Virus record (IMG/VR): IMGVR_UViG_2648501802_000002
Strand: one strand, 5' to 3'
Length of the DNA: 64,000 nucleotides
From: a virus
Taxonomy: Duplodnaviria > Heunggongvirae > Uroviricota > Caudoviricetes
A model generated the notes under the pieces. It was not told the origin of the DNA. It made no database searches and was given only the letters and a program-made list of their open reading frames with translations. Positions 31,416 to 43,287 of this stretch are shown one piece after another (position 1 is the first letter of the stretch; each line of letters begins with the position of its first letter). The position numbers and the translations under genes are program-made.

Positions 31416-31619
31416 TTATAATTGAGCCGTGGCGTTAGTCAACTACGAAGACGTGGCCATTACCTACTTAACCAGTTCCGCCAGGGCAGCAGAGTAGGTT
31501 TCATCTCGGATGTACCATGCCTGCATGTTTTCCAGAGAAGCCCGCGAGGTTCCCGGACAGGACTCTGCCATTGCGATAGATTAAATGCAATAACCTAAAA
31601 GCGATAACGTGGTGGAAAA

Positions 31620-32259
31620 ATGTTCATCAGAGCTTATTTAAGGGCATCAACGGAAGATCAGTTTGCCGATCGGGCAAAAGAGATGCTGGGGCAGTTTGTT
31701 CAGGAGCGGGGACATAAAATAGCCAGTTACTACCGGGAGAACATAAGCGGTACAAAACTCGACCGCCGGAACTGGGACGCTTACTGATGGACAGCCACCG
31801 CAATGATATTTTACTGGTCGAGCAAATTGACCGCCTGACCCGTCTGAGTAACAGTGACTGGATTACGCTGAAAAAGCAGATAGAACAACACGAACTGCGG
31901 ATTGTCGCCTGGATGTATCCACCTCATGGCAGGCGCTGTCAGATAAAGACCCTTCGCAGGCTGACCCAATCACCCGCGCCGTGATAACCGCCATCAATAA
32001 CATGCTTATCGACCTGATGGCCGCGATGTCGCATAAGGACTGGCTGAGCCGTCGCCAACGGCAACAACAGGGAATTGAACGGGCTCATACGCTGGGTAAA
32101 TACCGGGGATAACAGGCCGATCAGGAACGGCATCAGAAAGTCCTGTACTACTGGCAGGTCAAGAAACTAAGTATCCATGAAACGGCAGATGCGACAGGGT
32201 ACAGTCCTTCACAGATATGCCGCATTCAAGCCCTTTATAGAGAGCCTGAATCGGAATAA
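31620..32259 (+). pseudogene. serine recombinase (resolvase/invertase family), decayed
   Basis: Starts MFIRAYLRASTEDQ (catalytic Ser motif); two single-base losses in C-runs (about 31762 and 31908) and an in-frame TAA before the C-terminal HTH. Confidence 0.6.
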
Positions 32260-32365
32260 AAAGTAGCCCAGGCGTTAATGGATTACCTTTCCAGGCTAAG
32301 CTCATTGCTCCTGTCAGATACGCAGCCCTGCCTGTAATAATACAGACTGGGCAATGTGTTGCCAC

Positions 32366-32767
32366 TCAGGCTGACAACTGTCGGAGGATATCCGCTGTAT
32401 TATAATGAGCCCGTTTTTCTATATATTTCCCGTCTTTCAGAGTGATCATAAACATCAGAGAAAAGCGCACTTTCCTGCCGCTGGCAGGATGCCCAAGGAA
32501 TTCACGGGTCTGCACGCCTTCAAAGATAAGATAGCAGGCGACTTTATCGTCTCTGGCAAAGATTTCGTGGATACGCATTGTAAATCCCGGAAAAGCATCC
32601 ATATGGCCTTTTTCCTGTACGATAAACTGCTCACTGTTCAGCGGTGTATCCACCTGAGAATAGAATTTAAAATCCGGATGGCAGAGGTTTTTCACCTCAT
32701 CATATTTATTTTCTTCAATCAGACGATAAAACTTTTTAACCGTTTTGATATTTTCTTAAACAGACAT
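32366..32767 (-). pseudogene. SnoaL-like / NTF2-fold protein with premature stop at codon 4
   Basis: GAGGTG RBS then ATG TCT GTT TAA (stop at 32756-32758), frame stays open into the annotated ORF from GTG at 32695. Confidence 0.5.
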
Positions 32768-32775
32768 ATTGCACC

Positions 32776-33765
32776 TCATTTTTCAGTTTCTTTACCTGCC
32801 GGAATATTGCCTTCCGGCGTTCCGTTAAATGTTTTTCGCCATTCACTGGGACTGACTCCCATCCGCTGCCGGAATATCTGCCGGAAAGTAATGGTGGACT
32901 GAAAGCCTGCCAGTTCGGCAACCCGCTCCACTGCAATATCTGTACTTTCCAGCAGTTCCTGACTCCGCCGGAGACGCTCTGTGGTGATCCACTCCCAGAC
33001 CGTCATTCCTGTGGCCGAATGAAAATGGCGTGTAAGCGTTCTTCGGCTCATGGAGGCTAAATGGGCCAGAGTGTCAATATCATGTGGTAATCCCAGATTT
33101 GCGGACAGGTATTCCAGCAGCTGGTTTATGCGGTTATCGGACGTACTTTTGGGAATAAGCAGTTGCCGGTACTGTGCCTGTCCGCCTTCCCGGTAAGGAG
33201 GAGCAACCATCCGGCGGGCTATTTGATTAGCCGTATATCTGCCCAGGCGTTGCCGGATCACATGGAGACAACAGTCCAGTGCTGCGGCTGTACCGGCTGA
33301 GGTGATAATCCGCTCGTCCTCAACATAAAGCACGTTCACGTCCAGATGAACCGCCGGGAAAAGCATCTGGAAATCCCGTTCAGCCTCCCAGTGCGTGGCC
33401 GCCCGTTTACCATCCAGCAGACCGGTGTAAGCCAGAACAAAACTCCCCAGGCACAGGCCCACCACCTGAGCTCCATTTTTCCAGGCTGCAACCAGGGCAC
33501 TGAGCAGAGTTTCAGAAGGCCTTTCATGGATGTGTTTCCAGAAAGGAATAATAACGATATCGGCCTCTGCCAGTGCATCAAGCCCGTATTCTGCCCTCAT
33601 CGCCGTACCTTCAGCAGACCAGATAAGCCCGGGCTCTTCCGCACATACCCGGCGGCTGAAGAGGGCCTTCCCTTCCAGTATCTCCCCGAACAGGATTAAT
33701 GGAACGGAGACATGAAATGTACTGAACCCTTCGGTGATCACTATAGCGACAGTGATGGTGGACAT
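32776..33765 (-). CDS. GlxA-like transcriptional regulator (DJ-1/PfpI domain + AraC HTH)
   Basis: 329-aa ORF; N-terminal DJ-1-like region and C-terminal AraC-type HTH. Confidence 0.6.
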   Translation of the reverse strand: MSTITVAIVITEGFSTFHVSVPLILFGEILEGKALFSRRVCAEEPGLIWSAEGTAMRAEYGLDALAEADIVIIPFWKHIHERPSETLLSALVAAWKNGAQVVGLCLGSFVLAYTGLLDGKRAATHWEAERDFQMLFPAVHLDVNVLYVEDERIITSAGTAAALDCCLHVIRQRLGRYTANQIARRMVAPPYREGGQAQYRQLLIPKSTSDNRINQLLEYLSANLGLPHDIDTLAHLASMSRRTLTRHFHSATGMTVWEWITTERLRRSQELLESTDIAVERVAELAGFQSTITFRQIFRQRMGVSPSEWRKTFNGTPEGNIPAGKETEK

Positions 33766-33780
33766 GCCATGGCCTCCGGG

Positions 33781-34557
33781 TTAAATCGTAACTGATTCAC
33801 CATCAGCAGGAGCGACAACTGACGCCTGGATCTGGTTATCGCGGGCATATTCCAGCAGTTCCTGACGGGTCAGCAGACAGTGGTTTACGGCCTCCATGTG
33901 CGTTGCCACAATCAGTGCCTCTGGTACGATACGATGGGCTTTCAGGACATCTTCCCTGCCGAAAATAATGGGGCCGAATCCGAGAACATGCGCCCAGCCC
34001 GTATTCATAATAACGACGCCAGGATTGAACCGACGTAAATTATCCTCTACAGCCTTGATCCAGATGGTATCCCCAACCAGATAGAGCGTTTTTTCGGACG
34101 GATGCTGGAAGACCACCCCACAGGCATCCCCAAGAATTGCTGCGAGTTGCGGGTTAGCATAGGCTTCGTCCGAACCATGCTGACAAACGGTTTTAATAAG
34201 TGAAATTTCGCCAAATGTGCTTTTGTCAGACAGAATAACAAGGTTGCTGAAGCCCTGGGAACGCAGGATCTTTTCATCATGTTCATTCTGAACATAAATC
34301 AGTTTATCTTTCGGGATGTGCGCAACAGCCGCTTCATCCCAGTGGTCAGGGTGTGTGTGGGTGACAATAATGGCATCCACATCCAGCAGTACATCAAGGT
34401 CAAAAGGCAGCTCAGTCATCGGGATGCGGATATCTGACCGGGCCGTTCCTTCGAATCCCGGATAGGCTTCTTTTTTCGCAAGCATCGGATCGACAAGAAA
34501 TTTTTTACCAGCGTAAGAAATGAGTTGTGTGGCGTTACGTACCTGGATGATCTTCAT
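33781..34557 (-). CDS. MBL-fold metallo-hydrolase
   Basis: 258-aa ORF with THTHPDHWD (HxHxDH metal-binding motif). Confidence 0.6.
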   Translation of the reverse strand: MKIIQVRNATQLISYAGKKFLVDPMLAKKEAYPGFEGTARSDIRIPMTELPFDLDVLLDVDAIIVTHTHPDHWDEAAVAHIPKDKLIYVQNEHDEKILRSQGFSNLVILSDKSTFGEISLIKTVCQHGSDEAYANPQLAAILGDACGVVFQHPSEKTLYLVGDTIWIKAVEDNLRRFNPGVVIMNTGWAHVLGFGPIIFGREDVLKAHRIVPEALIVATHMEAVNHCLLTRQELLEYARDNQIQASVVAPADGESVTI

Positions 34558-34772
34558 TTTAGCAAGTCCTGTATTGGTTAATAACCATCAGAGCCATATC
34601 ATGATGGCCTAATGTGATAATTATGATTAAATCAGGCCTGCCTGCCACTGAAATAATGCCATATTTGGATGATATCAGGCCATTCTTCTGGCTCTCAGGT
34701 TTCAGGAATATGTCTGCTGAAAGCGGGTACAGATCTGACGCATTGAAGGGAAGTATCGTCCTTTAAGGCTTA

Positions 34773-35162
34773 TTGATGTCAGCCAGTACAAAAAATCATC
34801 TTAACGTACAATATCTTCCGTTTCCCAAACGGAGCCCACCAACGACGGAGGAACGGCGCATCGCCAATGCTCTTGGCGCTCTCCCCTGCATTGCCTGCTA
34901 TATGCCTGGAGTAATATCTAATGAGGTGTCTCTGAACCATATCGCCGGTCGTACCGCGCCGGGTTGTCACAAAAAGCAATTGCCACTTTGTAGATGGCAC
35001 CACCAGCATGCAGCACCGGCTGAAGTAAGAGAAAAATACCCCTGGCTGGTCCCTGTTCATGCCGATGGTGTGGTTGGAGGCAAGAAAGAATTCACCTTGC
35101 TGAACAAGTCAGAGATGGAGTTGCTGGCTGACGCCTATGAAATGGCAAACGTCATGCACTAA
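34773..35162 (+). CDS. HNH-motif protein (Ref-like position)
   Basis: 129-aa ORF with CIAC...NHIAG...CRWHH Cys/His pattern; precedes a Mat-position gene. Confidence 0.35.
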   Translation: MMSASTKNHLNVQYLPFPKRSPPTTEERRIANALGALPCIACYMPGVISNEVSLNHIAGRTAPGCHKKQLPLCRWHHQHAAPAEVREKYPWLVPVHADGVVGGKKEFTLLNKSEMELLADAYEMANVMH

Positions 35163-35240
35163 TAAATATATTATTTTTAATCTTAAATGATTGACAACTG
35201 ACAAGTGACTTGAGTCAGAATCATCACACGCCCGGTACGG

Positions 35241-35996
35241 ATGGATCCCTTTTCAAATATTCCATGGACGGCACAGTCTGAGTACCGGGCGCTACCTTCT
35301 GTTGTATTGCTAAGCCGCCGCTGGTGGCTTTTCTTTTTTATAGGGGGCGATATGGATAAGAAAATATGCGTTGTTTCGATGAGCGTCGGTAAACCGGCGT
35401 CAATGACTGCTGCATGGATCAACAACGAGCTGATAATGGCTGAGCGGACCAGCTACCCTGAACGCCGCCGCGATATGGAACTCCAGCTGCTGCGCGAATT
35501 GCGAGAAAAAGAGGAAAAGGGTTTTATCGTGCTGGTGGAAGAGGAAAACAGCTTTATTACCGGTCGAGTTGGCCAGCGTGTAAGGTTGCGCGATCCCTTC
35601 ATGAACGGCAGGCCGGTACTAATTGAAGCAATGCAGATTTACAAGGAGCTGGAACGCCAGAAAGCGATCAAGTTACCGCGCAAGGAATCCGGCAAATACA
35701 TCCTCCACCAAAGCATCTTCGATTCCGAACACGATAAAAAAGGCGATGAGTTTTTCAACATCAACTGGAGCGAAATAACGACAGAGCATGTTCTGACGTT
35801 GTTATGCTGCTTCGCAACAGAATACAACAACGTGGTAAGCGCAGACTACATCAGGACAATGACAGACACCGTTACTAAACAAGACAACGAATATTCACCA
35901 TATGAGCCATTTGTAAATATGATAAAAGCATTTTATCGGATGGAGCTCGCTAAAGTTCCTCAAGGTAAATTAACAGGTAAGGATAACATCTTTTAA
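35241..35996 (+). CDS. hypothetical protein (Mat-like position)
   Basis: 251-aa ORF, probable start at internal MDKKICVV. Confidence 0.3.
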   Translation: MDPFSNIPWTAQSEYRALPSVVLLSRRWWLFFFIGGDMDKKICVVSMSVGKPASMTAAWINNELIMAERTSYPERRRDMELQLLRELREKEEKGFIVLVEEENSFITGRVGQRVRLRDPFMNGRPVLIEAMQIYKELERQKAIKLPRKESGKYILHQSIFDSEHDKKGDEFFNINWSEITTEHVLTLLCCFATEYNNVVSADYIRTMTDTVTKQDNEYSPYEPFVNMIKAFYRMELAKVPQGKLTGKDNIF

Positions 35997-36049
35997 GCAC
36001 AGTAATGAGGTGCTTAGATGTTAATATCAATATCCTAACTCTCTGCATC

Positions 36050-36739
36050 TCATAAATCTGATAGCCACTTACTATCTATGGACTCAATCTCCGTCAGCGG
36101 AATTGATGGGAAAAAATATCCCTGAGCGCCCCATAGCCCTATTCCTTTTGATAACTTATGACAATCAATGTTTTCGACGCCTTCAGCGATGATATTCGGA
36201 CATAACTTTTTTAAATTGCTAATAATGACATCAAAATGAGGCTTAATCATATGCTCTTGAAAAAATGACTTATCAAGTTTTATTGCATGGTATTTATTTT
36301 TAATTAATGCTTTCATGGTGGCGTTACCACTTCCAAAATCATCAAGCCAAACATAGTCTGTCAAAGTCAGGAGAAAGGGTATAACGTAATCCTCATCGCT
36401 TAAATCAGGGTAGTTTTCTGATATCTCAAGAACTATAAATTTATTGTTTTTAATTAACTCTTGAGTTTGTTTATTACTGTATATATATATACATGTATCA
36501 TAATCTACATTAATAGAACATAGTATATTATGGCGTTCAAAAAAACACTTGTATTTCATTATTGTGTTAAGTTGTGATTTAAGTAAATTAATCTTCATCT
36601 TATTGGTAAACATACCCAATACTCTTTGAGTAGGAAGAGCGACACCATCTTTGGAGCGAAATCTGCTTAACACTTCTACTGCAATCAACTTGTTCGTGCT
36701 CGTAGAAATGATTGGTTCTGCAATGTAGATAACTTCCAT
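36050..36739 (-). CDS. EAL-domain protein (c-di-GMP phosphodiesterase-like)
   Basis: 229-aa ORF with EVLSRF, DDFGSG, KLDKSF and AQGYFF motifs; AT-rich. Confidence 0.6.
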   Translation of the reverse strand: MEVIYIAEPIISTSTNKLIAVEVLSRFRSKDGVALPTQRVLGMFTNKMKINLLKSQLNTIMKYKCFFERHNILCSINVDYDTCIYIYSNKQTQELIKNNKFIVLEISENYPDLSDEDYVIPFLLTLTDYVWLDDFGSGNATMKALIKNKYHAIKLDKSFFQEHMIKPHFDVIISNLKKLCPNIIAEGVENIDCHKLSKGIGLWGAQGYFFPSIPLTEIESIDSKWLSDL

Positions 36740-36975
36740 ATCCCCACCCTCAAGTTTTAAATTGCTTGATTTTGCTCAGATAACGAGCCCCCTATATTTA
36801 CAAGAGTTACACTCTACTTTTGTAGATTAAATGTCAATTTATTTGTTTGTGATAATATTGAAAAATATCAATTAAAACAATCAAAAAATGTGACATAAAT
36901 CAATAATTTTATTTTTACACAACTTCTTGATTTCTGAGCCTAGCTATCTCTATTCTTATTCAAAGCCTCTTTAGA

Positions 36976-37710
36976 ATGGTGGTGGCCATGTCAGCAGTTT
37001 GTTACTTCATACTCATAAAGAAACCTATAAGCTTTCAATTTCTTAAGGATTTCTTAATATTAAATTATGGTGATGTGTTGTTGCTTAAGCATTCTGAGCA
37101 TGAATGCTTAAAAATCTATTCAGACAAATATATAGAATTCGAACTCAATGATAATACCGTAAGAAACTATTTATCATGCAACAACAACCATGGAAACCAA
37201 TCGCTGGATAAGTGTCCGCATTTGCTAAAAAAGTCTTTTGCCTATCCTGATTTATTAATCAGGATGATCGATAATATAAGCGATCAAAATCATATCCATT
37301 CTGATTTTAGGGAGGCAGTAACTTTTTCATTACTCTCAATTTTTAATGATGTTGATAACTTTAGAGCATTTCTTACGTCTGGTATGCCCACTTTCTCAGG
37401 GAAAGTGCGCAGCATATTTCTTTCAGATGTATCTAAACACTGGAAACTAAGAGACCTAACCGATTATCTCTACATGAGTGAAAGCTTAATAAAGAAAAAA
37501 CTATTATTGGAAAACACCTCCTTCAGTAAGTTATTACTTGATACACGGATGGCTTTTGCTATTAAATTACTAAAGCAAAATCATCCAGTCAAACAAGTAT
37601 CAGAAAGCTGTGGCTTTAGTAGTACATCGTACTTTGTGTGCCTGTTCAGGCAATATTATAATTGCACGCCACGTGAATATGCAAAACATCAATTATTATC
37701 TGGAAAATAA
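36976..37710 (+). CDS. AraC-family transcriptional regulator
   Basis: 244-aa ORF with C-terminal AraC HTH; AT-rich, divergent from the EAL gene. Confidence 0.6.
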   Translation: MVVAMSAVCYFILIKKPISFQFLKDFLILNYGDVLLLKHSEHECLKIYSDKYIEFELNDNTVRNYLSCNNNHGNQSLDKCPHLLKKSFAYPDLLIRMIDNISDQNHIHSDFREAVTFSLLSIFNDVDNFRAFLTSGMPTFSGKVRSIFLSDVSKHWKLRDLTDYLYMSESLIKKKLLLENTSFSKLLLDTRMAFAIKLLKQNHPVKQVSESCGFSSTSYFVCLFRQYYNCTPREYAKHQLLSGK

Positions 37711-37748
37711 GATGCATTTATCTCCCAGATAATATTGTAATATTAAAC

Positions 37749-37997
37749 TCAGTCAGCATTTAGTAGCAGAGCATTATCTATGATGATCTGCTCCCATTCT
37801 TCGAATGCCCGGTCACGGACGCCCTGGGGAACACTGTTTGTTTTGAAATCAACGACTGTCCGCCATTTCCCGTCCGGACGGTACATGCGCAGAGCTTTAC
37901 TTCCCCCTTCCCTACGCACCTCAACGTTATGCTTGTCAGCAAACTCTTGTAATGCTCGTAGCGTCCCATGCTTTACTGTGTAGTATCGCTTTTTCAA
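37749..37997 (-). CDS. small protein, last gene of the DarB-like operon (Lxc-like position)
   Basis: 82-aa ORF, 4-nt overlap with the upstream gene. Confidence 0.3.
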   Translation of the reverse strand: MKKRYYTVKHGTLRALQEFADKHNVEVRREGGSKALRMYRPDGKWRTVVDFKTNSVPQGVRDRAFEEWEQIIIDNALLLNAD

Positions 37998-38434
37998 GTT
38001 TTCTCTCCAGCCTGTGCCAAGGCTTCAACTTCCAAATCGTAAGACTCAAACTCATAGTCCTGGTCGTCAACTTCTTCAGGCACTGGCAGTAAATGCCAGG
38101 CTGAGTATATCTGACCATTATCAAAACGCTCCTGGCTGTAGAGCGTCGCAGCTATGAGCGTCAGCGCCGGGCGGTCATAACGGTAAATTTTGCGAACGTC
38201 ACGGTCAACGAGACGACCGAAATTACCATAACCGCGCTCCAGTAATAATTTTTTAATTTCCGGCCAGTATGGGCCATAGCTGCGGTACAGGCGGGGATTT
38301 TTCAGTAATCGCCCGCGTAGCCCTGACAGGAAGAAATCAACGTATTCGTCTTCTGTCTTTCCTAACAACGCTGTACGGAGTACCGCCTCAAGATATGTTT
38401 TATTCGGTTTTATTGTATCAGATAGTGTGGCCAT
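37994..38434 (-). CDS. hypothetical protein downstream of DarB-like gene (Ulx-like position)
   Basis: 146-aa ORF. Confidence 0.3.
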   Translation of the reverse strand: MATLSDTIKPNKTYLEAVLRTALLGKTEDEYVDFFLSGLRGRLLKNPRLYRSYGPYWPEIKKLLLERGYGNFGRLVDRDVRKIYRYDRPALTLIAATLYSQERFDNGQIYSAWHLLPVPEEVDDQDYEFESYDLEVEALAQAGEKT

Positions 38435-38467
38435 ATTATGCGACGCCCGGCGAACCGGGCGCTCCTG

Positions 38468-41400
38468 TTATGCGTATTGTTGGATGACGGCCAGAACGTC
38501 CGCCACGTTGTGTTTTGTCTCGATAATCCACCAGTTACCCGGGAAATCGCTGTTCTTCGCCTTCGCTGGCAGCCAGCGAGCGCCGAATTTCGCCTTGATT
38601 GCGTCTTTCGCACGGAAAAGAACGCCTTTCATGCCTGAGGCTTCCTGAAGCCCAAATACCTCGCCAGCGGCGAATTTTGGTGCGTACATCATCTTCAGGT
38701 CGGCGGTGGATACGCGATAATTCAGACCTAGAGACTGAGCTATGCTGGTGGCATCACCCTGTATTGATGATAACTCTTCTTGTTTCTCGTTTCTGGCGGC
38801 AATCTCTTCCTCCGTGATGTTGCCAAGGGCCAGGTTTATCCGATCAGCGTCGGCCTGTTTCTCTTCATCGGTGCGCCCGGCAAGAACCGTGTTAATTCTC
38901 TGCAATATCTCCACATGATTCTTGCGCATGCTGAGCAATTCCGGCGTAACCTCGTTAAGATCCACCAGCCCAAGGATGGCAAGGTCGGAAAACATTGATA
39001 CCAGGTTGTAGGTCATGCGATAGCTGAGTTGACCATAGGCTGATGGCAACTTCACCGCATCCATTTGATAGGCATCCATAAATTTAGAGCCGTCGTTTAC
39101 GACATCCGCTATTGCAGGTGTGATTTTCCCTGTGGTGGCGGCCTCCCTGATTGCTGTTACCCACGATTGAGTCAGCGCGGCGACTGCATGATTCAGATTG
39201 GCTTCCCGTTCTGCTGCGATGCGCGCGCTTGCTGCGTCCATTGCCTGCTTGATCTCGGCTTTATTGCTGTAAATGCCAATGGTGCCAAACTGTGCTGTGG
39301 TGATCTCATAATCTGACGCCCGGAACTCATTGGTACCGAAAATGGCATTGGTGACTTCAAGTTCAGAATCCCCGTTACGAGTAGCCCCCTGGCTTGTTTT
39401 TTCCGGCATTCTGGCGATCGCATCCGCTATTTTCTCCTGAATTGCTTCAGGGGATAGCGTATCTCCGTATGACGCGATTACATCGCCATAATTGGAGCCA
39501 AACAATTCAACCAGGAATGTTTCTGCCGAACGGATCTGGCGGTTATTCCCTTCCGACATCATACCAAGCACCCATTTTGCAATTGACGACTTCAGCGCGA
39601 CGTCACGGCGATCCGGGTAAACCGCATGCTTCAGTGGGTCCGTATAGGTACCAACAAAATCAATGCTATAGCCTGACTCTGTAGTCTGAACGCCGTATGA
39701 GTCAGTGATTTTGATCATGCCGCGCTGCTGGAAACGGTAGAAATCGTCACAGGAAATGATGTCGTTAATCCCGGCGATGGAGACGCCGCCACTGATTTTC
39801 TGCATAACAGCATCTTCATCGGGAGTTACATCAACCTGTTTATCCAGCGTCTTCACATCCCAGTTACCCGATTTGGTACCTTTGAAGGTAAAGATAATCT
39901 CCACGTCTGCGCGCAGGCTGTCGAAGTCCAGCGACTTAATGCGAACGATATCACCGGCACAATCGTAGTATTGGCCTACACGCCATGAGCGATCGCCGAT
40001 AATAAGGAACTCACTCGCATGGTTAACCAGGTCAGGATCAACATCCAGAATGCCTTTATTTATTGCATCCTCCACCAGCGGGCGCAGGCGTTTGATATCC
40101 GTCGCGGCCTTCTGAGTACGGTTCAATAATTTCTCATAGCGGGAGATGGCTTGAGAGATATTAGCCTTGCGCTGAATGGCGCTTTTCAACGACGCGCGAT
40201 ACTGTGCTAACAACGTACGGTCTGTGTGATGGACGCTACCCCAGCGGGCTTTCCAGTCTGCGTTATCAGCTGCTTTGGCCATTACCGCCTGTTTGAATTT
40301 GGCGACGTCGGCGGTGGTCTTTTCAAGTTCCGCTTTGCTTCGCTCTAATTCAGCGGTAAGCACCTCCACATCCTCACCAGCTGCGTGCTGCGCCTTGATG
40401 TAGTTCTGAAGGTCGATAGTAGCCTGTTCTTTCTGGCGAGCGCGTTGCGCGGCTTTCGCCTTATCCATTTGAACCTGCATCATTGCCAGACGTTCGCCAT
40501 CATCCTTAGCGGTATACATCTGCATTTCGATCATATCGTTGGCGTCGGCGTTCTCCATTTCTGACTTATCTGAACGGAGGATATCGGAGATCCAACCTGC
40601 TTTACGCTTCAGCGTCTTCAGTCGGTATTCATCGAAAGAACCCTTGCCGCAGTAGTAGTGAACGCGAACGCTTGCACGGTTGGAACCAACTCGGGCACCG
40701 CGACCGTTACGCTGTGCGATACTGGCTGGTGTCCATGGCAACGTCAGATGATGGATGTCAGTCGTTCCTCGATGCAGGTTGATACCCACCTCTGCCTTTT
40801 TGTTGCAGATGATGATCGGAGTCCGGCCCTCCTGGAAGTCGGCTGCAATCTTTTCCAGACCGCCCAACGACATTTCATTTTGCTGCGCGATATAGGCGTC
40901 ATACAGAGCTATTTGCTCGTTGTATTTCGCTATCTGTGCATCTGTTGGTTCATCCGGTAACTCTTTCGGCGGTTTAACCGCTTTCAGTTTCTTACCGGTT
41001 TTACCTGCCTCGGCAACCGTCTGAGCATTCAGGATCCCCACCTTTGAAGGTTCAAGGTTAAGAGCATTGCAGATAATGCGCTTGAGCTTCTGGTGTTGCG
41101 TTTTTTTCATCGGTGAAGATGATTTGCTTACCTTCTGGGAAAAACTCCTTCAGCGTGGCAATCAGCTTCGCGTATTTGGGCGTAACGGGGTGAGTTACGG
41201 TCTGTTCGTCAATGCCAAACTTGGCCAGGCGCTTATTCACTTCCTGCTCAAATGCTTCCGGTACCTGCAACTGAATAAACTCGCCCTTATCTATCAGGGA
41301 GTATTGCGATTGCTGCGTGATTGAATCATCACTGTCGTCGTCTTCGCTGGTGGCTTGTTTGGGCAAACTGTCCGCCAGCTGCTGCACCGCATCGGCGTAC

Positions 41401-43287
41401 TCCGGCAGGAAACGATAGGTGATCCGGCGATAGTACAGGTCCATGTCAGTACATACGCGGTCCATATCCCTGATTATTGAGAAGATCGGACGGGCTTTCT
41501 CGTGCTCAATCACGCCGTCTTCATTGACCGAGGTCATTACGCCATTGTTGGCTTTGGCCGCCGCTTCCGCCTGCTGACGCAATTCTTCATACGCCGCCAG
41601 TTGTTCTTCAGTAAGTGGTGCATCCTGCTGGTGTTCGTCCAGCTCCGGGATCTCCACGGTATCCTTAACGTCTTCCGCCGTTTTAAGCGTTACCCAGCGA
41701 TGGAATATACCGCGCAGCGCATCAACCCGACAATTTCGCTATAGGACCGCGACCAGGATTACCAAAGCGGTCAATCTCTGCCTGCAAACGGGATACCAGA
41801 GAAAGGCGCTGCTGTTCGATTTGTTCAGCACTATGCCCGGCGGCCTTCATATCCTGATATTCAATTAACATCCGGCCAATCATCGCCCCGCGATACAAGC
41901 GTTCACGGTATTTTTCAGGCTGGCTGTTAATCCAGTCCACCAGCTGCACCATATCGTCGCTGATTGATGTGGTGTACTTATCGCGGACATTTGCCATCTG
42001 GGTAAATGTCATGCCGAGACGGCCTTCTGTTGTAGTCAGGTTACGCTGAAGAGCCTCCCAGCTATCCGCGCCATAACTGGCAGCATCGATCTTAAGTTCC
42101 TTCCCGGCATCAGCTTCAATCCAGCGACCACCAGCATATTTTTGCCATACGCCATTAATCAGGCGCATTTCCCCTTCACCAACAACGTCTGCGGTCGGTG
42201 ACGGTTCAGCCATATCGAGCAAAGACCAGTCGATACGGCTTTCGAAACGATGAATCAGCTTCGCTTTAAGAGCCTGGTTATCAATCTGACCGTCGGCACG
42301 AACCTCAATACGCCCCTGGAAGCCCTTTTCCTGGGTGCCATGAACAAACCGGCGGCCATCCTTTTCAAACCACTTGCCAGAAATAAACGTTGGCCAAAGC
42401 ACATTTGCCGATTCAAGAGTGCTTTCATCCACCAGGGGGATTTTCTCAGCCATCTCTGCCGGATGTTTGCGCATCAGCACCACATCAACGACTGTACTGG
42501 TCCCGTTTGCGTCAAAAGTACCGGTAGGCAAGCGGTGAGCGCCAAGAAATTCAGCTTTACGGGATAAGCGCAGGCGTAACCGCTTCATGTTTGAACCTGA
42601 AACAATGGACGGCGGCACAATCACGCACATGAATCCGCCTGGCTTTATCTTGTCCAGCATGCGGAGCATGAAGTAAGAACCCATGTCCGTTTCTTCTGCG
42701 TAAGGCTTATCGATGTTGCGTGTGTTATCACGACCGCCGAACGGAACGTTACCCACAACATGGTCGAATGAATCGTTAGGCGTGCTTATAGCCAGCTGTT
42801 CGAACGGGGAAATCTGTACGCTGTCTTCCGGGTGTAACAACTGGTTTATACGACCGGAAACACTGCTGATCTCAGTCGCGGTCATCACCGTACCAACCGG
42901 TTTTGTCTCATTAAAAACGCCGGTTCCCGCCGATGGTTCCAGAGTGTTACCTACGTCCGCGCCGTAGAGCTTCATGATCTCCCAGACACCTTCAGCGATC
43001 GGCTTTGGTGTGTAATATTCGGAGACGGACCCGCCAATGCCGCCTTCACCGGTGTACCCAGCCAGGATCTGGCGCTGTTCATCTGTCAGTGTCGCGCCGT
43101 CCACCAGCGAATTAAGCAAATCTATCGCCTTCTGATTCGCCTCCCGGCGCAGTCGGTCATAGCTTTTGCCTTCCACCTTTTCCACGCCGTATTTAATCGG
43201 CGCTCGGTGAGATGTTATTGCCCTAATGTATTTCAATATTTCGCTGACACTTGAACAGCAAAACACCCCCATAAATAGCTTGTTCAT
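38468..43287 (-). pseudogene. DarB-like N6-adenine methyltransferase + helicase-C fusion gene, in three ORFs
   Basis: ORF 41722..43287 has methyltransferase motifs (EPSAGTGVF, GNVPFG); ORFs 41058..41657 and 38468..41110 carry helicase C-domain motifs (KQIIFTDE; AQRNGRGAR); junctions at an A7 tract (41101-41107) and a 1-nt shift near 41722-41738. Confidence 0.55.

Follow-up and report, generated by a model that had tools for sequence, protein, structure and literature searches.

A divergent EAL-domain and AraC-family gene pair, predicted to encode a c-di-GMP phosphodiesterase and its regulator, occupies the restriction-modification slot of a P1-like phage-plasmid

The DNA analyzed here is a stretch of 64,000 nucleotides (IMG/VR record IMGVR_UViG_2648501802_000002; hereafter, the window) from a tailed phage of the P1-like group. 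Within it, a divergent gene pair encoding a stand-alone EAL-domain protein and an AraC-family regulator lies at the position where phage P1 carries its Type III restriction-modification (R-M) genes. We consider it probable, if far from assured, that the pair forms a self-contained lysogenic-conversion cassette in which a predicted active EAL phosphodiesterase would lower cyclic di-GMP (c-di-GMP) and a YdeO-like activator would control its expression. The analysis establishes the position and intactness of the pair, the fold and full catalytic set of the EAL protein, purifying selection, the conserved pairing of the two genes, their genetic contexts, and their prevalence. The two genes are as follows.

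36050–36739, minus strand: stand-alone EAL protein of 229 amino acids, a predicted active c-di-GMP phosphodiesterase (Pfam, residue scoring, AlphaFold2, Foldseek, and the ratio of nonsynonymous to synonymous substitution rates, dN/dS)
36988–37710, plus strand: AraC/XylS-family regulator of 240 amino acids, a YdeO-like paralogue (helix-turn-helix (HTH) domains, BLASTP against YdeO, AlphaFold2/Foldseek, and dN/dS; the mechanically called open reading frame starts at 36976)

Catalytic site and fold of the EAL protein

The EAL protein matches the Pfam EAL domain over residues 4–210 of its 229 (E = 5.5e-18, 65.6 bits versus a cutoff of 31.3). The original prediction had spoken of catalytic-looking motifs, and scoring of the catalytic residues bears this out: the catalytic, metal-binding, and substrate-binding residues E22, R26, N77, E105, E108, D133, D134, K154, E186, E189, and Q206 are all present, and loop 6 is intact (D134-F-G-S-G-N-A-T, versus DDFGTGYAT in YahA and DDFGTGMAN in PdeH). 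The motifs EVL-x-R, N77, E105-x-x-E108, K154, E186-G-V-E189, and Q206-G align one-to-one with those of YahA/PdeL and PdeH, and a table of the sites revealed that the window protein has all of the PdeH residues plus R26 and D156, both of which are missing from PdeH. The sequence was aligned with 20 relatives taken from a search of 5.8 billion proteins. Across these 21 members, E22, N77, E105, E108, D133, and K154 were invariant and D134, F135, E186, G187, E189, Q206, and G207 were nearly so, and the family profile matched active YahA/PdeL motif by motif (EVL-x-R, N, ELTE/EISE, DDFG, K-x-D-K, EGVE, and QGY). The gene is under purifying selection, with dN/dS values of 0.10–0.16 in every comparison across three diverged lineages.

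An AlphaFold2 model of the protein, with a predicted local distance difference test (pLDDT) score of 93.3 and a predicted template modeling (pTM) score of 0.90, is a high-confidence EAL (beta/alpha)-barrel. When this model was submitted to Foldseek, the top matches were YdiV (TM 0.88, 1.9 Å) and STM1697, with overall TM values of 0.82–0.88 to the two, followed by the active phosphodiesterases YahA, RocR, TBD1265, and PdeA (TM 0.73–0.81). Loss of key catalytic residues together with the lack of a phenotype, or homology to a different fold, had been named in advance as counting against an EAL enzyme; the residues are kept, and the model and its Foldseek matches give an EAL barrel. The sequence comparisons gave the same order of relatives, with phmmer against the PDB returning STM1697 (1.5e-29), YdiV (6e-22), and YahA (5e-9), and the family profile returning STM1697 (2e-50), YdiV (5e-42), and YahA (1e-20).

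STM1697 and YdiV/RflP (STM1344) are thus the nearest solved relatives in both sequence and structure and share the stand-alone format of approximately 230 residues. These two proteins neither bind nor cleave c-di-GMP (PMC5622320). In them, the R, E, D, F, and E found at positions 26, 105, 133, 135, and 186 of the window protein are replaced by H, L/Q, G, L, and G. A neighbor-joining tree of stand-alone enterobacterial EAL proteins placed the P1-like, IncF, and fimbrial-plasmid proteins in one clade with 100% support. The deep nodes of the tree were unresolved, the sister relation of that clade with YdiV/STM1697 having a bootstrap value of 38%, and for this reason we claim no common descent with them. 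Judged by its sequence, the EAL protein is an intact-site member of the group of small stand-alone enterobacterial EAL proteins that includes the degenerate anti-FlhD4C2 factors.

Comparison with other named proteins places it further. The window protein shares with PdeH (YhjH) and YahA/PdeL the fold and the full catalytic, metal-binding, and loop 6 set, and with PdeH the stand-alone, single-domain size class. It differs from both in being AT-rich, plasmid- or phage-borne, and accompanied by its own AraC regulator, and PdeL, unlike the window protein, has a fused LuxR-type HTH. Orthology to PdeH was rejected on the basis of 26% identity to the K-12 protein and a score of 95.4 bits for the NCBIfam PdeH equivalog NF008617, whose cutoff is 190. 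SfaY/PdeY, whose gene is reported to close the sfa operon, belongs to the family as a distant relative; it and the window protein are both small stand-alone EAL proteins of mobile elements, but they are just approximately 25% identical, and the P1-like element has no linked fimbrial genes. SfaY is functional when overexpressed in Vibrio cholerae (PMC5635171). In PHROGs, the EAL and AraC proteins both fall into families of unknown function.

A YdeO-like regulator of the AraC family

Assignment of the second protein to the AraC family stands, as its C-terminal double HTH scored above the Pfam cutoffs for both HTH_18 (50.3 bits versus 33.6) and HTH_AraC (37.1 versus 26.6). The gene boundaries given originally hold for the EAL gene (36050–36739) and for the end of the AraC reading frame (37710), and only the AraC start needs revision. 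The ATG at 36988 is kept in all variants, follows GGTGGTGG, and corresponds to Met1 of YdeO in the alignment, whereas the ATG at 36976 is not conserved; on these sequence grounds the start is most likely at 36988, giving 240 residues. BLASTP aligned residues 1–233 of the regulator to K-12 YdeO with 35% identity and just one gap, of one residue; identity to AppY over its C-terminal half was 40%. The protein is a paralogue of YdeO; orthology was rejected, as the score for the NCBIfam YdeO equivalog NF007407 was 152 bits versus a cutoff of 348. YdeO and AppY have almost the same segments in the first HTH (SESLIKKKL here, SESLLKKKL in YdeO) and in the second (STSYF), from which it is reasonable to infer that its DNA specificity overlaps theirs.

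Matches to the regulator sequence in the PDB were CsvR, Rns, the GadX DNA-binding domain, and ToxT. The AlphaFold2 model (pLDDT 87.7) was matched by Foldseek to Rns, CsvR, and ToxT over their full length and to the GadX DNA-binding domain at 1.3 Å, so that the regulator shares the two-domain architecture of Rns, CsvR, and ToxT. In a hand-read alignment, the Rns pocket residue R75, which PDB entries 8vrq and 8vst carry in mutated form, is replaced by Glu, and Rns H20 lies beyond the aligned region. With YdeO, AppY, GadX, and the Rns group, including prophage-borne YdeO-like regulators, the gene has in common that it is AT-rich and horizontally acquired. It is under purifying selection (dN/dS 0.07–0.11 in every comparison).

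YdeO-like AraC regulators of approximately 30–37% identity were also observed in many lambdoid phages (mEp332, ev099, the Lambda_ev series, and an Stx2k phage) and, elsewhere in the genome, in the P1-like phage phi456. Phage-encoded YdeO-like regulators look like a broad class (PHROG 1450, function unknown). Among 50,697 phage records, close homologues of the EAL gene were found just in P1-like elements, and AraC genes of approximately 30% identity were common in lambdoid phages.

The control region between the genes

The features of the spacer and of the adjoining 3' end of the regulator gene are as follows.

36740–36987: divergent control region, GC content 0.30 (cross-variant alignments and composition; the spacer measures 236–248 bp depending on the start chosen)
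36889–36904, plus strand: TGTGA-N6-TCAAT block within a conserved A/T-rich footprint
36927–36956, plus strand: putative sigma-70 promoter of the regulator gene, TTGATT-18 nt-TATTCT
37694–37734, minus strand: hairpin with a 17-bp stem directly 3' of lxc, over the regulator stop codon (terminator-like match and RNA fold)

A generic sigma-70 scan of 35900–37850 returned 9 sites, versus 10.3 expected, and was not above chance; cross-variant footprinting of the spacer was used in its place. The regulator-proximal stretch of approximately 150 bp is conserved among variants. Here the putative promoter hexamers TTGATT (36927–36932) and TATTCT (36951–36956) are invariant, whereas the 18 nt between them diverge. 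The upstream block is largely retained in five variants of the pair, with proteins 68–81% identical, its TGTGA half being invariant and its N6 variable; the block could be an activator site, either CRP-like or autoregulatory. At the other end of the regulator gene, the minus-strand fold of the 37694–37734 hairpin has a free energy of -20.5 kcal/mol (z -4.9; none of 200 shuffles as good), versus -12 kcal/mol (z -2.9) for the plus strand. The hairpin is probably the terminator of lxc-ulx-darB, which would stop antisense read-through into the cassette. A terminator after mat (hairpin 35990–36050) was also considered and rejected because its fold was no better than that of shuffled sequences (z about -0.9).

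The cassette replaces the res-mod interval of P1

The cassette and the genes on either side of it are as follows.

35862–37752: AT-rich cassette with no P1 homology, substituting for P1 3337–9753 (RD-1) (blastn against NC_005856, junction alignments, and GC)
35241–35996, plus strand: mat, the left flank, matching P1 with 96% identity in its first part, with the final ~45 codons coming from the swapped block
37749–37997, minus strand: lxc, the right flank, within which P1 homology restarts at 37753

The genes Ref (34773–35162, PF16786) and Mat (35241–35996) precede the pair, and Lxc (37749–37997, minus strand), Ulx (37994–38434, minus strand), and DarB follow it; all five are P1 genes. In blastn comparisons with P1 (NC_005856), window positions 34831–35861 corresponded to P1 2306–3336 with 96% identity and positions 37753–41725 to P1 9754–13725 with 98% identity, whereas P1 3337–9753, which contains the end of mat, res, mod, and IS5, had no counterpart. 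The placement of the pair in the Type III R-M position, between Mat and the DarB-like operon, is therefore upheld, with the res, mod, and IS5 interval replaced. Junction alignments indicated that the swapped block takes in the final ~135 nt of mat and that P1 homology restarts just inside lxc, a few bases from its 3' end. The slot is that of the RD-1 hot spot of P1-like plasmids (P1 3,469–9,749) defined by Venturini et al. in 2019 (PMC6906374).

Both reading frames of the divergent pair lie where they had been reported, and the low GC noted for them is the minimum of the window. The 1.89-kb non-P1 segment (35862–37752) has a GC content of 0.327, versus a mean of 0.479 (SD 0.033) for windows of the same size, and is the lowest of 1243 sliding windows; along the profile, GC is 0.28–0.36 over 36000–37800 and approximately 0.50 on either side. 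A search around the cassette for transposon or insertion sequence (IS) ends, terminal repeats, and target duplications found just short chance-level repeats, which makes recombination in the mat and lxc flanks the likelier route of entry; P1-like elements would have acquired the cassette by exchange between these conserved flanks. An Rfam search of 35500–38200 found no RNA family.

The pair in other genetic settings

The same divergent arrangement was found outside the P1-like elements. On two IncFII plasmid loci it stands beside ParE/RelB (EAL 67–69% and AraC 81% identity), and on three large plasmid contigs it lies approximately 1.8 kb from a chaperone-usher fimbrial operon and is flanked by IS66 (EAL 69% and AraC 68% identity). 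More distant EAL relatives were located downstream of a Pap-like fimbrial operon, beside genes for a serine protease autotransporter of Enterobacteriaceae (SPATE) and haemolysin (49% identity), and beside a SPATE autotransporter gene on three virulence-plasmid contigs (46%). One copy adjoining a PapB-type operon is interrupted by IS66, and an AraC relative of 59% identity lies beside K88-type fimbrial genes. The pair in the window has no fimbrial genes with it. These contexts suggest that the pair probably began as a regulatory module of chaperone-usher fimbrial operons on plasmids. Most simply, a module of activator and phosphodiesterase would have entered the mat-lxc hot spot by recombination, without the fimbrial genes.

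Prevalence was assessed in 5426 complete Escherichia coli genomes. The pair was present in 139 of them, with 139 of its 143 places on plasmids, and 120 of the 139 genomes covered at least 80% of the pair DNA. The lxc-ulx marker of P1-like elements was found in 697 genomes and EcoPI res in 88 (57 plasmid places). P1-like phage-plasmids are thus present in approximately 13% of complete E. coli genomes, and approximately one-fifth of the E. coli P1-like elements carry the pair, which is commoner than EcoPI. PLSDB holds 127 plasmids, from E. coli, E. albertii, E. fergusonii, and Salmonella, in which 80% or more of the 1.9-kb region is present.

Among phage records, vB_EcoM-Ro157c2YLVW comes closest (97.4% nucleotide identity). 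In that phage (locus L001, 1639–2324) the EAL gene was matched by tblastn in two pieces and is annotated as a shortened coding sequence of 199 residues; it is probably frameshifted there and is intact in the window. In several P1-like plasmids, IS3, IS5, ISKpn26, or IS1 separates or interrupts the two genes, or the regulator has a frameshift (L015, 6941–8104; L016, 8237–8958), and insertion sequences seem to target the AT-rich spacer.

The pair also replaces res-mod in OP279344 (locus L002, 3525–5150), with 88% identity to the window; this record, entitled 'P1 isolate del res del mod' on deposition, gives the genome sequence of a P1vir stock from a laboratory (bioRxiv 10.1101/2022.09.09.507302). 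The cassette is carried in place of res-mod by at least one P1vir stock in laboratory use. Its regulator has a 7-residue in-frame deletion (SLIKKKL) in the first HTH. The C-terminal half of its EAL protein is identical to that of the window and the N-terminal half is different, which suggests that it arose by mosaic recombination.

Plasmid pJIE250-3 carries the same pair (89.5% nucleotide identity). Its RD-1 content was described as '2 orfs including putative transcriptional regulator', and the EAL protein was not identified (PMC6906374). The generic database names 'EAL domain-containing protein' and 'helix-turn-helix domain-containing protein' are attached to hundreds of records. The module consists of two well-known kinds of protein in a published hot spot and is an uncharacterized new member, not a new kind of system; what we add is the audit of the catalytic site, the closeness to STM1697/YdiV, the conserved pairing, the probable fimbrial-plasmid origin, and the prevalence figures.

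Proposed function and alternative explanations

We propose that the 229-residue EAL protein, expressed from the plasmid prophage, would lower cellular c-di-GMP. In E. coli, lower c-di-GMP leads to more flagellar motility and to less curli, cellulose, and other c-di-GMP-dependent exopolysaccharides. By this physiology, lysogens would be expected to show more motility and less curli and cellulose. The YdeO-like regulator, with its Rns architecture, most likely would activate the EAL gene and itself through the shared AT-rich region, which is probably silenced by H-NS, and YdeO-, AppY-, or Rns-type promoters of the host or plasmid may also come under its control in trans. Several points weigh against this proposal. 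The closest solved relatives of the EAL protein, STM1697 and YdiV, are nonenzymatic. Conservation of the spacer does not extend to its EAL-proximal part, and cross-variant footprinting gave no defined binding site. The case for the AraC protein controlling the EAL gene comes just from conserved divergent synteny. Decayed copies exist, through frameshift of the EAL or AraC gene, in-frame deletion in the AraC gene, or an IS in the spacer. Finally, a literature search found no functional study of the EAL protein or a close relative and no paper linking P1-like elements with an EAL protein.

The closeness to STM1697/YdiV puts the direction of the motility effect in question. If the EAL protein acted mainly by protein contact, as an STM1697/YdiV-like anti-FlhD4C2 factor repressing flagella, instead of or besides hydrolysis (a trigger enzyme), the motility outcome would be the opposite. 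We regard this as unlikely, though worth serious attention. The two factors are by far the best PDB sequence matches and the best structural matches, and in one GenBank record a 90%-identical EAL homologue is labeled 'ydiV, putative anti-FlhC2FlhD4 factor'. In STM1697, 11 residues contact FlhD (V115, L116, L136, V147, F160, K167, L172, L173, K175, H176, and Y180; PMC5622320). When these were mapped by hand on the phmmer alignment, two were identical in the window protein (F160 = F159 and K167 = K166), four were conservative (L136 to F135, V147 to I146, L172 to V171, and L173 to I172), and five differed, including the polar residues K175 and H176, which are S174 and N175 in the window protein; this split speaks neither for nor against FlhD binding. 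The conserved F159 is part of the generic KxDKSF motif of EAL domains. The window clade keeps R26, E105, D133, F135, and E186 under purifying selection, whereas STM1697 and YdiV have lost them, a pattern that is hard to account for without catalysis, and the bootstrap value for joining the clade to those proteins is the 38% given above.

It is also conceivable, although improbable in our view, that the cassette serves the phage-plasmid itself, either by draining c-di-GMP and so excluding superinfecting phages whose receptors depend on c-di-GMP (N4-like) or by hydrolyzing cyclic-dinucleotide immune signals, in functional replacement of R-M. The cassette sits exactly in the EcoPI R-M slot and adjoins the ulx-darB antirestriction operon, E. 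coli becomes resistant to N4 when any of seven of its c-di-GMP phosphodiesterases is present in extra dosage (PMC7553319), and the family profile matches PDB 6ifq (2.5e-11), a stand-alone EAL enzyme whose entry names it a versatile 'cyclic di nucleotide phosphodiesterase'. PADLOC models, however, gave a chance-level match for the EAL protein (E 0.009) and none for the AraC protein, the occurrence of the pair on nonphage IncF plasmids and beside fimbrial operons points to regulation of adhesion or motility, and RD-1 of other P1-like elements holds nondefense cargo (PMC6906374). An element-serving phosphodiesterase that acts as a signaling-based substitute for R-M, and that might also touch FlhD4C2 directly, is similarly doubtful. 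Least of all do we expect the pair to be a leftover of a fimbrial regulatory module, of no functional importance and carried along passively in a recombination hot spot, a very improbable reading that draws on the missing fimbrial genes in the P1-like context and on the sporadic frameshifts, deletions, and IS insertions. Such a remnant would sit poorly with dN/dS values of approximately 0.1 for both genes in three diverged lineages, with the conserved pairing and regulator promoter footprint, and with the presence of the pair in approximately one-fifth of E. coli P1-like elements, mostly at 80% coverage or more in the genomes that carry it.

If the enzyme is active, as the phosphodiesterase reading supposes, lysogeny by pair-bearing P1-like elements would rewire the switch between motility and biofilm, and the YdeO-like regulator might also affect acid-resistance or fimbrial regulons. 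The hosts concerned include many clinical and animal strains of E. coli, E. albertii, E. fergusonii, and Salmonella. The EAL protein, closely related to the degenerate anti-FlhD4C2 factors yet with its catalytic residues intact, is also useful as an evolutionary reference. We conclude that the cassette is a real but fairly ordinary cargo module.

Neighboring regions

Additional departures from P1 were observed on both sides of the cassette. A second non-P1 cargo block (31464–34830) lies between c8 and a 5'-truncated ref, whose reading frame (34773–35162) encodes 129 residues from a TTG start, versus 186 in P1. The block contains genes for an 'ester cyclase' (annotated so elsewhere), a DJ-1/PfpI-AraC fusion regulator (32776–33765, minus strand), and an MBL-fold hydrolase (33781–34557, minus strand), and many P1-like plasmids of E. 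coli, such as NC_017653.1 of O55:H7 strain RM12579, have it with 100% identity. On the other side, darB (38468–43287) is not intact: an internal deletion of approximately 1.9 kb has removed the counterpart of P1 13726–15662, and the gene is split into reading frames at 41722–43287 (521 residues), 41058–41657 (199 residues), and 38468–41110 (880 residues), versus 2255 residues in P1.

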